DNA of 61,585 nt, counting the filler, from Bradymonadales bacterium (GTDB taxonomy: Bacteria > Bdellovibrionota > UBA2394): NCBI GenBank assembly GCA_007693605.1. It is 4 parts of 4 records of this genome, joined end to end, with 100 filler letters (N's around TTAATTAATTAA, not from the genome) between each part and the next. Parts side by side here need not be neighbours in the genome. Positions count along the whole stretch, not along the records: positions 44,217 to 61,585 come from REDG01000038.1; 3 more parts are not named here. One strand, given 5' to 3'. The position numbers were made by a program, and so were the translations under genes. This document shows, in pieces, positions 44,373 to 50,651 of the stretch; within the stretch, counting starts at the first letter, position 1, and the number at the start of each line of letters is the position of its first letter. Under the pieces are notes generated by a model. The model saw only the letters and a program-made list of their open reading frames with translations. It did no database searches and was not told where the DNA came from.

Positions 44373-45332
44373 CTAGGTCAGCCAGATATCATTGAGCTCT
44401 TTGCGATCTTCAGGAGAAAGGTGGAGGTCTCGAAGCAACTCAATCGCCTCAAACTGTTGGGGAGTTCTTGGGGCTACAATACAGCCACGAACAAGAGGGT
44501 GATCCGCGAGCCATAGGTAAGCTAGACTTGCTAGGTTGCTGTTATAGCGATTGGCGATTTCTCGGCATTGTTGGAGCTTGGCAAAGAGTTCAGGCGTCAA
44601 AGCCTTCTGATACAGGTCCCTGCGCAGATCGACTCGAGAGCCGGTCGGAATGTAATTCTCAGAGTATTTCCCAGTGAGGAGGCCCCCCTCTAAAGGACTA
44701 TAAGCGAAGAAATGTATACCTAACTCCTGACAGGTTGGGAGAAACTGGTTTTCTAGATCTTGGCGCGCCAGGTTGAAAGGCATTTGAACACATGAAATCG
44801 ATATCCAGTTGTTCATTTTCGATAGCTCACAAGCTTTAGCCAGAAAGGCATGATCTATGTTTGATGCTCCCAAGGCCTTGATTTTTCCTTCCAAGTACAA
44901 GCTGTGAAAACATTCCAAACTTTCTTCGAAGGGCGTATCGGGGTCTGGGATGTGGAGGTAATATAGATCTATGGCATCAACCTGCAAGCGACTTAAACTA
45001 CCTTCAATTTGTTTCCGTATGTGAGAGGGTCTAAGGCCGACCTCGCCATCGTGGGTTGGGTTTCCAACTTTAGTCCAAACAATGACTTGCTCTCTCTTGT
45101 GGGAGCCAATGCTCCTTAGCCACTTCCCTAAAATTCTTTCAGACTCTCCTCCGGCATAAGTGTTTGCTGTATCAAAATGTCGAAGGCCTAGATCTAAGGC
45201 CTGGTCACAGTTTCTGTAGGCTTGGGCTTCAGAGTCTCCCTTACCAAGAAGCTCCATTGGGGTGCCGAGGCCACCAAAATTAGCGCAGCCGTACGCCCAG
45301 TCTGATATCTTTGTAAAATGTCGATCACGCAT
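44373..45332 (-). CDS. Aldo/keto reductase
   Basis: GCANFG, FDTANTY..GESERILG, TKV, SLSRLQVDAIDLYYLH, GASN, YSPL.GGLLTGKY. Confidence 0.93.
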   Translation of the reverse strand: MRDRHFTKISDWAYGCANFGGLGTPMELLGKGDSEAQAYRNCDQALDLGLRHFDTANTYAGGESERILGKWLRSIGSHKREQVIVWTKVGNPTHDGEVGLRPSHIRKQIEGSLSRLQVDAIDLYYLHIPDPDTPFEESLECFHSLYLEGKIKALGASNIDHAFLAKACELSKMNNWISISCVQMPFNLARQDLENQFLPTCQELGIHFFAYSPLEGGLLTGKYSENYIPTGSRVDLRRDLYQKALTPELFAKLQQCREIANRYNSNLASLAYLWLADHPLVRGCIVAPRTPQQFEAIELLRDLHLSPEDRKELNDIWLT

Positions 45333-45367
45333 AAATTGTGTTTAACCGTTGTGAACTGAAGCTGCGA

Positions 45368-48141: not shown

Positions 48142-49494
48142 ATGAAGAGCTATTTTTTTTGGATGCTTGGTTTGCGGCGAGATTCTGTCCTGACAGGATT
48201 TCTTTTGGCTCTCTTGGTTGTCTTGCTGGCTCATGCGCTGTGGGGATACCAGCAGCACGCAAACACTAAACAGCTCCTGATCGACAGCTATAGGGTGGTG
48301 GGGCAAGAAGTTGCCCGAGAGCTTGGAGTTGAGTTGAAGGTCAAAAACGACTACGGGGCCTATCGAATATTGTCTAGCTCGGGCCTTTATGAGCGTGTGA
48401 CGGCGGTTGACATTTTTGAGCCGAGCGGGGCTGCATTTTGGGCCGAATCTAGTGTGGGGCTCTCTGACTTTCGGGCTGATTGTCGCAATCAGTACGAGGC
48501 AATCCCCATTAAGTATCTCAGTGAGGTGGTCGGCACTTTGGCGTATTGCTTTCCGATTCAAGTCACTTATCTGAGCAGCTTTTCAATAGTTTCTGTAGCC
48601 TCGACCTTAGTAGGAGCTTTGATTATCGGGACATTGCTTCTTTTGTGGTTCGTTTCTCAGACGAATAGTGTGCGTTGTTTGATAGGATTTATAGAAGGAG
48701 TTGATTTGTCTCGGCCAGGAAGTCCGTCCCGCCTAGTGCCTAGGGGATTGTCCCATGAAATTCAGCCCGTTTATTTGAAGATTAAGGCTCTTTTGGAAAA
48801 GCTTGATGAAGAGATGCAATCAGCGAAGATGAGAGAGAGAGAGTTGGCTATTGTGGCTCTGTCGAAAGAGGTGGCTCATGACATCCTTTCACCCCTGGCA
48901 ACCTTGAAGGCAGTCAAGCAGTCGTTGCAAGAAACGGCCCTTGATTCTGAGCTCGAAGAGATCTTTAGTAAAAGTTTAGAGAGAATCTCAAAAATCAGTA
49001 AAACTCTTCTTGACCAATCTTTGGGTCGATTTGAAGGAGTCCCGATCGATGTCTGGCAGGTTTCTAGCCGCGTGATCAGAGAGTTTAAGTTGAAGTACGG
49101 CCATTGGCTCAAGGTGAGTATTGAAGGTTCTGAGAAGGTCAGTTTAGCGAATGGCGAAGAACTTGGCTTGGAAAGGGTTTTGACCAATCTGCTTAACAAC
49201 TCCGTTGAGTCATTTAAAGAAGACCATGAAGAGGCTCTTGTGAGAATTTCTATTGCAACGGGTGAGAAGTTCGTTGTTTTGCGAGTTCAAGACAATGGGC
49301 CGGGCGTGCCTGAGGCAGTCAAGGAAAAGCTTGGTCAGAAGCAGATTACATATGGCAAAGAACGGGGCCATGGCTTGGGGGTCTATTCAGCTGCAGCGAT
49401 GTTAAAGCGGTGGGGTGGTAGATTGACATTCGAAAGTCAGCCGAATTGGGGAACGATTGCTATTGTGCAGCTGAGGAGGGCAAATAAAAAGTGA
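48142..49494 (+). CDS. Membrane sensor histidine kinase
   Basis: 2 TM helices; H-box EVAHDILSPL, N-box LTNLLNNS, DNGPG, GHGLG. Confidence 0.92.
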   Translation: MKSYFFWMLGLRRDSVLTGFLLALLVVLLAHALWGYQQHANTKQLLIDSYRVVGQEVARELGVELKVKNDYGAYRILSSSGLYERVTAVDIFEPSGAAFWAESSVGLSDFRADCRNQYEAIPIKYLSEVVGTLAYCFPIQVTYLSSFSIVSVASTLVGALIIGTLLLLWFVSQTNSVRCLIGFIEGVDLSRPGSPSRLVPRGLSHEIQPVYLKIKALLEKLDEEMQSAKMRERELAIVALSKEVAHDILSPLATLKAVKQSLQETALDSELEEIFSKSLERISKISKTLLDQSLGRFEGVPIDVWQVSSRVIREFKLKYGHWLKVSIEGSEKVSLANGEELGLERVLTNLLNNSVESFKEDHEEALVRISIATGEKFVVLRVQDNGPGVPEAVKEKLGQKQITYGKERGHGLGVYSAAAMLKRWGGRLTFESQPNWGTIAIVQLRRANKK

Positions 49495-50651
49495 GGTTGG
49501 TCCGTTGGGTTCACCTTCTGTTGGTAGTATTTTTTGTTTCCTCATGCTTTAGTTTTGTCTTTCCACTGTTTATTCCCCTTCTTGTTGAAGCGGGACTTAA
49601 GGATACTGAGGCCTCACTGTTGTTGGCAGTGGGCTTTCTCTGTTCAGCAATTCTGATGCCCGTGTTTGGTAGGCTGCTAGATCAAGGCTGGTATATTCGC
49701 TACGGATTGTTCGCGGGAGTAGCCTTGATCTTGGGGGTGTTGCCATTGGTCGCTGATCTTGGGGAGGAAGCCTTTCTTCTTCTTTTCTTGTACATTCTGG
49801 GTGTGTCTATGGTGTCTAGTCTCACAAAACGATTTACAGAAGGGGCGTGGGAGGGGGCCGCGCTTAAGAAATACTCTGCGCTTACTTATTTTTCAGAAAA
49901 TCTGGGACTGGCCTTTGCTGGAGTTGTGGCATATTTGTACATCACTGATTTTAAAGGATTGTTGATTCATATAGATGTGATCACAAGCCTTTCTCTCGTT
50001 TTGTTCTTGTGCACTTTTTATAAAAAGCTACTTCCACCGGAGCTTCGCTATGTAGAACCCAGAAAGACTTTTGAAAAAGGCTTATTTGCCGAGAAGATTA
50101 TTGGCCAGCCAGCACTGTTTTTATCTCTGTTGGGAGTCGTAGTGGTGTCCCTTGCTCATCTCTCAGCCCTTCCCGCCCTCTTTGTGAGTCGAGGCTTGCC
50201 TGCGTTGCAGTGGACTTCGATTGTTTTGATTGTGAACTCTGTTACTGTGGTCATCTTCGGTCCTTTCTTGTGGTTGGGAGTCATTGGGCTGTCAACGAAG
50301 CTTCAGCTGGCGATTGGCATATCTTTGATGGCGGTTGGAAATGTCTTGGTCGGATTTTGGCACTCCTTTTATGGAGTCGTTTTCACAACCGTTGTTTGGT
50401 CAATGGGAGAGGTTCTTCTCTACCCAGTTTTTGCTCTTGTTGTATTGAGGCAGTTTTCTCAGGAGTGCAGAGGAGTTGGTACTGCGTTTAAGTCCTCTAT
50501 TATACAGGCTGCATTGTTTTTGTGTCCAATAATGACCGCTGGGATGCTGGCTATAAGCACTGAACGCTATCATTTTCTATACATTTTGGTCTTTGGATCA
50601 CTTCCTCTAGTCGGCTATTTTGCGATCTCAAAGGCGATTGAAAGAGATTAG
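49491..50651 (+). CDS. MFS transporter
   Basis: About 12 hydrophobic helices; motif-A-like GRLLDQG; 4-nt overlap with the kinase gene. Confidence 0.8.
   Translation: MRLVRWVHLLLVVFFVSSCFSFVFPLFIPLLVEAGLKDTEASLLLAVGFLCSAILMPVFGRLLDQGWYIRYGLFAGVALILGVLPLVADLGEEAFLLLFLYILGVSMVSSLTKRFTEGAWEGAALKKYSALTYFSENLGLAFAGVVAYLYITDFKGLLIHIDVITSLSLVLFLCTFYKKLLPPELRYVEPRKTFEKGLFAEKIIGQPALFLSLLGVVVVSLAHLSALPALFVSRGLPALQWTSIVLIVNSVTVVIFGPFLWLGVIGLSTKLQLAIGISLMAVGNVLVGFWHSFYGVVFTTVVWSMGEVLLYPVFALVVLRQFSQECRGVGTAFKSSIIQAALFLCPIMTAGMLAISTERYHFLYILVFGSLPLVGYFAISKAIERD

Follow-up and report, generated by a model that had tools for sequence, protein, structure and literature searches.

Organization of the locus

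We analyzed a 61,585-nucleotide stretch of DNA (the window), made up of four parts of the genome of a Bradymonadales bacterium (GenBank assembly GCA_007693605.1), and focus on a six-gene cassette with the features of a candidate peptide-signaling system. It lies at the start of contig C45 (REDG01000038.1; 17,369 nucleotides (nt); window position 44217 onward) and consists of two divergent arms whose start codons, at 46562 and 46608, are separated by 45 nt (46563..46607). The left arm, on the minus strand, begins with an open reading frame (ORF) of 40 amino acids (aa; 46440..46562; MKLKSSAEIKKLNSKILLRPNGLATASFTVGRPSARPSGS), a candidate precursor peptide with a net charge of +7 and no signal peptide. 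It continues with a predicted α-ketoglutarate (αKG)/Fe(II)-dependent HExxH peptide oxygenase (319 aa; 45368..46327) and an aldo-keto reductase (AKR; 319 aa; 44373..45332; PF00248, 223.8 bits, E = 3e-66). The right arm, on the plus strand, encodes an orphan family-5 solute-binding protein (SBP; 504 aa; 46608..48122; PF00496, 59.3 bits), a sensor histidine kinase (450 aa; 48142..49494; HATPase_c, 62.2 bits) and a major facilitator superfamily (MFS) transporter (386 aa; 49491..50651; PF07690, 46.4 bits). The right arm is tightly spaced, with 19 nt between the SBP and kinase genes and an overlap of 4 nt between the kinase and MFS genes; in the left arm, 112 nt separate the 40-aa ORF from the HExxH gene and 35 nt separate the latter from the AKR gene.

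All six ORFs stand where a preliminary description of this DNA had placed them, and the coordinates together with the Pfam and TIGR04267 profile matches bear out its account of both arms. As it had also said, the cassette lacks a radical SAM enzyme, a protease and an ABC permease, none of which appeared within it in a profile scan, and the host is Gram-negative, that is a diderm, as judged from three matched Omp85 genes. The nearest ClpX matches of the host are delta-proteobacteria-like. Given the 45-nt gap, the promoters of the two arms must overlap the flanking genes. Sigma-70 sites do not rise above chance (5 found, 7.0 expected), a terminator scan likewise stayed at chance level, and the HExxH and AKR genes have no clear ribosome-binding site (RBS).

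The preliminary description had cautioned that the left arm ends near a contig edge and might be incomplete. The edge is indeed close, 156 nt behind the AKR stop, but it is a collapsed repeat that is also found on contig C40. The end of this multi-copy repeat (44217..44271), about 100 nt behind the AKR stop, forms the left border of the cassette; the same 55 nt also open C40, in reverse, and a 120-nt piece of the repeat has a depth of 49.6, compared to 13.4 for the cassette, in read run X1. Because the contig breaks at this repeat so soon after the AKR gene, further left-arm genes beyond the break are unlikely. Run X1, which may be the source, yields the cassette as a single 9603-nt contig without differences. 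The only public run found to contain the stretch is a metagenome from a soda lake, possibly its source, and no RNA run is listed as containing it; two RNA runs of the same study gave 0 reads, a result that bears neither way on expression. Many contig ends of the host genome have collapsed repeats in common. On C40, adjoining the repeat that ends C45, an 85-aa remnant (C40:3880-4137) resembles, as judged by eye, the C-terminal receiver of the hybrid kinases in related cassettes.

The peptide and its predicted maturase

The HExxH protein scores 77.6 bits against TIGR04267, well over the cut-off of 40. It carries HEAAH at residue 200 and PLREDARP at residue 228, the latter matching the PxRxxxRP motif that we take to serve in αKG binding; R230 and R234 lie within it. 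H200, E201, H204 and the distal H241 are invariant across 54 and 88 aligned relatives. By sequence, the protein aligns with ChlB-HExxH (PDB 8s5f; E = 4.9e-5), with PLREDARP and H241 in register. Its AlphaFold2 model has a pLDDT of 94.8, and a Foldseek search with this model returned 8s5f (E = 1.2e-12, TM 0.74), with zinc peptidases far behind (E = 9e-3). By family and fold, the protein is thus predicted to be an αKG/Fe(II) peptide oxygenase.

The enzyme has no close relative. The nearest of 1701 profile matches is 38% identical over part of the chain, and a word-index search with the enzyme recovered only the enzyme itself. The same search with the SBP (E cut-off 1e-30, 8000 candidates scored) likewise returned only the query, and single-protein and three-sequence scans of genome contigs found no relatives. 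A metagenome scan gave four loci; the one that we examined (L206) has an HExxH gene and an MFS gene without an SBP.

The 40-aa ORF starts four bases behind GGAGG. This is a strong RBS that matches five of the six letters of AGGAGG, and hence not the perfect one first described. When the intergenic stretch was copied 5000 times by a Markov model, GGAGG and ATG with an ORF of at least 30 aa arose in 21 copies; of 15524 genome windows of 280 nt, 37 have such a combination. Because it is so rare in both, the small ORF goes beyond what chance would give. Its codon-usage score (−0.082, compared to −0.01 to +0.06 for its neighbors) adds no support. We disregarded a 50-aa frame that overlaps it (46426-46578) and lacks an RBS. 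The peptide contains neither cysteine nor histidine and carries F28-x6-A35-R36 near its C-terminus, an arrangement found as good in 67 of 5000 shuffles. Three further leads for the peptide were dropped: an ESM Atlas search (best score 0.79), the precursor family with an LDxSKLLG leader described below (1.7 and −0.6 bits, equaled by 150 and 708 of 1000 shuffles) and a likeness, not above chance, to signal-peptide precursors with an ‘xSF’ end, that of L081 among them.

The AKR is the only one found in the host genome, where a tblastn search returned itself alone, and its best relatives elsewhere are generic (38–44% identity). D54, Y59, K88 and H127, which we take to be the catalytic tetrad, are all present.

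The proposed receptor arm

The SBP has an N-terminal hydrophobic export segment, with its stretch from residue 9, and is 34% and 32% identical to its relatives in G007 and G374. There is no PF00528 permease on C45. Two membrane helices of the kinase, which start at 15 and 149, flank a periplasmic domain of some 110 aa, in which two cysteines are common to nine of ten aligned relatives. The HisKA match of the kinase (20.4 bits) falls under the cut-off of 26.9, yet the His246 box is intact; the N, G1 and G2 boxes are also kept, and it has no receiver domain. An SBP that adjoins a kinase with a periplasmic sensor domain, without a permease, is the layout of known SBP-dependent sensor kinase pairs. 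The MFS protein has 11 predicted helices and relatives in two of the cassettes described below (L099, E = 5e-40; L194, E = 2e-23).

We modeled the complex between the SBP and the kinase sensor domain, which scored 0.57, compared to 0.01 for the best of three controls. At least 86% of contacts agree between runs, and the partners have pLDDT values of at least 78, from shallow alignments. Among solved complexes, 116 of 157 reach the mark for this score, as do 2 of 215 mismatched pairs; at scores of 0.60 or below, it is reached by only 18 of the 157 together with both mismatches. The model therefore weakly predicts that the SBP docks on the kinase sensor domain, and its score possibly reflects a likeness to solved SBP-kinase pairs.

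The window also encodes a family-5 protein on another contig (38218-39873, minus strand, at a contig end). It is a canonical OppA-like protein (286 bits), unlike the three divergent orphan SBPs of this genome (60–100 bits).

Recurrence of the cassette

TIGR04267 matched 123 of 401 genomes of the phylum. Around every match with an open frame shorter than 390 aa, and around three controls with a long HExxH gene, we fetched about 14 kb (65 loci); three loci without an HExxH ORF were dropped, and genes were labeled with profiles built on these loci. The resulting 61 short HExxH ORFs (59 loci) have within 4.5 kb a family-5 SBP in 40 cases, a kinase in 42 and both in 38; an MFS gene was found near 14, a response regulator near 22 and an AKR near two. 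The SBP-kinase pair remains in 36 of 59 when the host genome is left out, and in 31 of 38 with full flanks. The 38 cases come from 34 of 51 genomes, which represent 29 genera in 12 families; these counts are descriptive, as kin are not independent. No permease lies within 6 kb of any of the 38, as judged with a four-sequence probe that did detect permeases elsewhere (L065). For comparison, 11 of 1565 host genes have a family-5 SBP and a kinase equally close, and all of them lie inside its two HExxH cassettes; neither gene is found near the three long-class HExxH loci. The SBP and kinase of the neighborhood proposed in the preliminary description thus accompany most short HExxH genes of the phylum.

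All three divergent family-5 SBP genes of the host adjoin a kinase and an HExxH gene. The second host cassette (L103; C27:15703-24028) has a converging kinase and SBP, then a 53-aa ORF, a second SBP, an HExxH gene that scores below the TIGR04267 cut-off, and a secreted peptidase of S9 type; an MFS gene was not seen. A single genome can carry two or three cassettes, and small ORFs with a good RBS, which fall into motif families, adjoin most cassette HExxH genes. An HExxH gene with a small ORF, an orphan family-5 SBP and a kinase, with or without an MFS gene, is a real and recurrent cassette type.

Other HExxH genes of the phylum stand in different surroundings. The long class (400–540 aa) is found in most genomes of family f10, 80 of 100 of which have a TIGR04267 match (L013, L014, L017 and about 75 other genomes), in a housekeeping-like context and, in the three loci read, without a small-ORF cassette. 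Six loci (L051, L052, L060, L063, L070 and L080) pair an HExxH gene with precursors of 41–53 aa that end in M-x-A-F, have no SBP or kinase and mostly continue into an ABC-type ATPase/membrane protein. Three more (L093, L094 and L097) have signal-peptide precursors, two with repeated cores, beside an M3 peptidase or GNAT gene, and their HExxH proteins fall near PflC homologs in one tree. In L020, L050, L057, L062 and L075, an MFS-like domain of 10–12 helices is fused to the N-terminus of the kinase (870–1003 aa), beside an HExxH gene and a 19–24-aa peptide.

Probable exchange of the maturase arm

The closest relatives of the window SBP are found in L194, a locus from another genus of the same family (SBP 34% identical), and in L099. 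In both loci, an HExxH gene is divergent from the SBP, again with tight spacing, and is accompanied by a small ORF that has an RBS, by a kinase gene and by an MFS gene related to that of the window; the order in L194 is peptide and HExxH divergent from SBP, 247-aa protein, kinase and MFS. Their peptides are acidic and downstream of the HExxH gene, whereas that of the window is basic and upstream, and the window locus lacks the GNAT-like gene and receiver domains of these relatives. SBPs and kinases of the same clade adjoin radical SAM proteins in L195, L197 and L200, and more distant SBPs adjoin DUF4135 or an α/β hydrolase.

Beyond the phylum, 58 of 80 loci of the HExxH class to which the window enzyme belongs have a different precursor family. 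These loci (within L105-L184; Pseudomonadota and Verrucomicrobiota) combine a stand-alone HExxH gene with Lys/Gly-rich precursors that have an LDxSKLLG leader and a repeated GAKVG core, often accompanied by either an ATP-grasp protein or a 320-aa protein lacking annotation on the opposite strand, and have no SBP or kinase.

Putative export route and peptide chemistry

For 41 of 62 HExxH ORFs, a candidate precursor was picked by hand and scored for a signal peptide by a hydrophobicity rule. A signal peptide without an MFS gene was found in 24, a bare peptide with an MFS gene in 14, a bare peptide without one in three, and both together in none (18, 10, 2 and 0 when 11 short-flank loci are left out). 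Two of the MFS labels are 11–12 predicted helices fused to the kinase, and one of the three exceptions (L076) nearly duplicates a candidate with a signal peptide that the rule missed. Within a single HExxH clade, one core motif occurs in bare form and also terminates signal-peptide proteins. The pattern of either an MFS gene or a signal peptide points to the periplasm, the compartment of the SBP, as the destination of the peptide, and the bare window peptide with its MFS gene fits it.

PflA and PosA, the precursors acted on by PflC and PosC, have cores with an F-x6/7-A-R spacing (PMC12636437). We adopted this pattern from that report after noticing ARMD in relatives of the cassette; it is present in 8 of the 41 candidates, the window peptide included, compared to 0.36 expected, with a literal ARMD in two (L054 and L058). 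The spacing hints at oxidative amidation and is a lead from sequence, not a sign of membership in the PflC group. A core family I-F-[DEN]-x5/6-[AS]-R (L050, L054, L057, L058, L061, L062, L075 and L077) occurs bare or ending signal-peptide proteins; it matches the ARMD motif cut by PflC and PosC, with EARVD in L057. A further motif match, in a Bdellovibrionia record (L311), is without an HExxH gene and was discarded as chance.

Proposed mechanism

We think it probable that the cassette makes a modified peptide that its own host senses, with a conserved receptor/export arm and a swapped peptide-maturase arm. The left arm would make a ribosomal peptide, presumably from the 40-aa ORF, which the HExxH enzyme would oxidize in the cytoplasm. 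The likeliest chemistry would be β-hydroxylation of a side chain, a PflC-like α-hydroxylation at Ala35, or both; α-hydroxylation at Ala35 would lead to a cut in the backbone, leaving an amidated peptide and a ketone-bearing tail. If such cleavage occurs, the ketone would be an obvious substrate for the AKR, which may reduce it or have no part with the peptide. The MFS transporter would export the product to the periplasm, as the MFS-or-signal-peptide pattern suggests. There the orphan SBP would capture it and signal through the periplasmic domain of the kinase, much as in LuxP-LuxQ or CBP-ChiS, and the kinase would phosphorylate a response regulator encoded elsewhere; 23 receiver matches are found elsewhere in the host genome. 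Across cassettes, the receptor/export arm would act as a conserved chassis and the peptide/maturase arm as an exchangeable part, here an HExxH enzyme of another clade plus the AKR. The function would be the sensing of self or kin by a private peptide signal. The sensing and export steps that had been proposed for the locus are thus favored by the recurrent unit, weakly by the docking model, and by the export pattern; the label of quorum (density) sensing is not yet supported for the cassette.

A number of results weigh against this reading. No homolog of the 40-aa peptide was detected, and its best score against 40 other candidates was matched by 265 of 300 shuffles. It also fails the precursor profile of its enzyme’s own class (rank 81 of 4593), and the conserved upstream peptide that the preliminary description would have led one to expect did not emerge from comparisons with other candidates, with profiles or with the ESM Atlas. 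In the tree, the window enzyme has P0002 as its partner within a different class of proteins, outside the HExxH proteins of L194 and L099, and its grouping with the cassettes that have its SBP and kinase was rejected (approximately unbiased (AU) test, p = 1.2e-5, for a group partly selected after a first tree was viewed). The SBP-kinase pair is present in none of the 80 sampled relatives from other phyla, where our SBP profile, built from the host phylum, may be less sensitive. Most short HExxH genes of the phylum therefore have the sensor pair that the preliminary description made central, but the class closest in sequence does not. The window enzyme also falls outside the clade of PflC/PosC homologs (18 homologs, found by motif, form their own clade); a PflC-like profile gives it 43.1 bits, the best of 64 phylum ORFs, but within its own class it ranks only 10 of 226. 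No response regulator is encoded on C45. Last, the Fisher test for MFS versus signal peptide (p = 2e-8) overstates that pattern: the independent switches with good support number only two to three, all in one direction (sign test, p = 0.5), too few for significance.

An AKR is near two of the 61 phylum HExxH genes, one being the window locus itself and the other a 90-aa fragment, near one of the 80 loci of other phyla, and none of the seven closest phylum AKRs lies within 1.5 kb of an HExxH gene. These counts rule out the AKR as a conserved partner, and the redox tailoring first ascribed to it has no conserved pairing behind it. It appears to be a locus-specific accessory gene, and we lean against its acting on the peptide, though it may do so; in L018 and L085, a short-chain dehydrogenase/reductase gene adjoins the HExxH gene and would be an analog.

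The HExxH of another clade, the lack of the sensor pair among its 80 relatives, the unmatched precursor family and the missing GNAT-like gene and receiver domains together mark the locus as a mosaic, in which a conserved receptor/export arm has probably been joined to a swapped peptide-maturase arm. Given the clade mismatch and the 80 relatives without the pair, the match of the window receptor to the window peptide is only putative.

Alternative explanations

The cassette could instead make a ribosomally made and post-translationally modified peptide (a RiPP) with an outward job, as an antagonist, metal chelator or prey-directed factor, and the SBP and kinase would sense the loaded product or a cue from the environment and merely tune its production or uptake; it would then be a biosynthetic cluster under regulation and not a signal between cells. 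We regard this as improbable. Family-5 SBPs do bind nickel and metallophores, and the best NCBIfam match of the window SBP is NikA-type, far under the cut-off; uptake, however, would not be served, since these SBPs come without a permease or TonB-type receptor. Copper-chelating, Sec-exported precursors are known (bufferins; PMC12452194), and the strongly cationic charge of the 40-aa peptide (+7) would suit an outward role, but it has no cysteine or histidine for metal binding. Moreover, hypervariable precursors beside a retained receptor chassis, and two or three cassettes in one genome, are what private signals predict.

The mosaic could also have gone further, to the point where the locus is no longer one unit: a block of peptide, HExxH and AKR genes would have landed beside an older SBP-kinase-MFS arm that has lost its own peptide and maturase, and the receptor would hear the peptide of another cell or nothing. 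The differences from L194 and L099 in HExxH clade, in the charge and position of the peptide and in the missing genes all point this way, as does the multi-copy repeat that the cassette abuts, with a kinase remnant on C40. Yet all six frames are intact with their catalytic residues kept, the block has the exact position and orientation of the HExxH arm of L194 and L099, which would be rare by chance insertion, and swapping of the maturase, HExxH or radical SAM, is the rule in this SBP clade. We therefore hold such a chimera to be quite improbable.

In a third alternative, which we hold to be very improbable, the HExxH protein would hydrolyze peptides or modify a different protein, the 40-aa ORF would serve as a leader or in regulation, and the AKR would be a common carbonyl-detoxifying enzyme. 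PflC does hydrolyze peptide bonds without its leader (PMC12636437), the long f10 class lacks a small-ORF module in the three loci read, the AKR relatives are generic and the codon usage of the ORF is poor, but the fold and PxRxxxRP match ChlB-HExxH (E = 1e-12 versus 9e-3 for zinc peptidases), and short HExxH genes nearly always adjoin a small ORF that has a good RBS and carries motifs particular to its family.

Comparison with known systems

The window enzyme resembles ChlBH (8s5f), PflC/PosC, PesO and BpmH in its TIGR04267 domain, its HExxH, distal histidine and PxRxxxRP motifs and its fold. Stand-alone αKG-HExxH enzymes in clusters without a radical SAM enzyme are known from PflC/PosC (PMC12636437), and PesO (PMC13060819) and BpmH (PMC12257519) likewise stand in clusters described, in the accessible text, without one; the absence of a radical SAM enzyme from the window cassette is therefore not new in itself. 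Like the pfl and pos clusters, the cassette sets its stand-alone enzyme next to a transporter and a small precursor, and no protease is linked. The pfl/pos precursor has an NHLP leader and a poly-Gln-ARMD end, however, whereas the window peptide has only F-x6-A-R, and the MNIO-nitroreductase of those clusters has no counterpart here. Triceptide clusters (radical SAM plus HExxH) differ by a fused or adjacent radical SAM cyclophane synthase. The accessible descriptions of known αKG-HExxH clusters mention no SBP and sensor kinase, and the window cassette has both.

SBP-dependent sensor kinases include LuxP-LuxQ, TorT-TorS, CBP-ChiS, HptA-HptS and XylFII-LytS (PMC12704726). Such pairs are alike in having an SBP gene beside a two-helix kinase with a small periplasmic domain, and in sensing without a transporter; in what that source covers, their ligands are small molecules or sugars, whereas the ligand proposed here is a peptide encoded next door. 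The bufferins and oxazolins are Sec-exported RiPPs (PMC12452194) and provide a precedent for the signal-peptide precursors in 24 related cassettes; as described in the accessible part of that report, they involve MNIO chemistry on cysteines and copper binding, with no SBP or kinase, and the window peptide is leaderless and has an MFS transporter.

CBP, the binding protein of CBP-ChiS, is itself a family-5 protein. In Gram-positive bacteria, modified-peptide pheromones are made by ComQXPA, in which ComX is prenylated, by agr and in lantibiotic autoinduction. These systems resemble the cassette in that a precursor, maturase, exporter and kinase share one locus, with a hypervariable peptide and an expected pherotype specificity. 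They differ in that their kinases bind the peptide directly, in monoderms; here, a separate SBP would stand in between, in a diderm, and the maturase is exchangeable.

Neighboring genes

Directly behind the MFS gene, frames at 50650-50870 look like the end of a decayed antitoxin gene and the start of what we take to be a PIN-domain gene. Farther along C45, on the minus strand, a run of genes at 51318-53613 encodes a T4 gp19-like tail tube protein (PF06841, E = 2e-21) together with a protein that matches LysM weakly and a membrane protein; no other tail genes are present on the contig. A presumed HipA-like kinase and an Xre-type gene follow at 55440-57036 (minus), and a nucleotidyltransferase with a substrate-binding/HEPN-like gene, as we take them to be, at 60426-61342 (minus). 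Both are probable toxin-antitoxin pairs, and if these labels are right they mark a variable region. Between them (57125-60049, minus) lies a 974-aa protein, presumably a lipoprotein in which long inserts separate catalytic motifs of subtilase type. Outside C45, we take a frame at 42236-42835 (plus) to be a fragment of an ISL3-type transposase.

Implications

A full-text search, which left subscription papers mostly outside, found no paper in which a peptide maturase is joined with both a kinase and an orphan family-5 SBP. The cassette type is apparently unpublished and may be an undescribed form of Gram-negative peptide signaling. A more ambitious version, which we consider rather unlikely, is a widespread, modular, peptide-hormone-like system of diderms: the HExxH enzyme, in the manner of eukaryotic peptide-amidating monooxygenase, would cut at Ala-Arg and so yield a signal with an amidated C-terminus, the AKR would reduce the ketone, the product would leave by MFS or Sec and be read by the SBP-kinase pair, and a swap of the peptide/maturase arm, with the receptor chassis fixed, would change the ‘language’.

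For the young family of αKG-HExxH enzymes, the related cassettes supply dozens of enzyme-peptide pairs. What the product of PflC chemistry does was left open (PMC12636437), and the match to the ARMD pattern in many precursors makes a concrete prediction of amidation and suggests a possible purpose for it. The window locus, with its conserved receptor and foreign maturase arm, would be a natural swap experiment. If the proposed mechanism is true, it would join the logic of Gram-positive modified-peptide pheromones with SBP-dependent kinase sensing in diderms, in at least 34 genomes of 12 families, and would provide a testable answer to how these lineages sense their kin.

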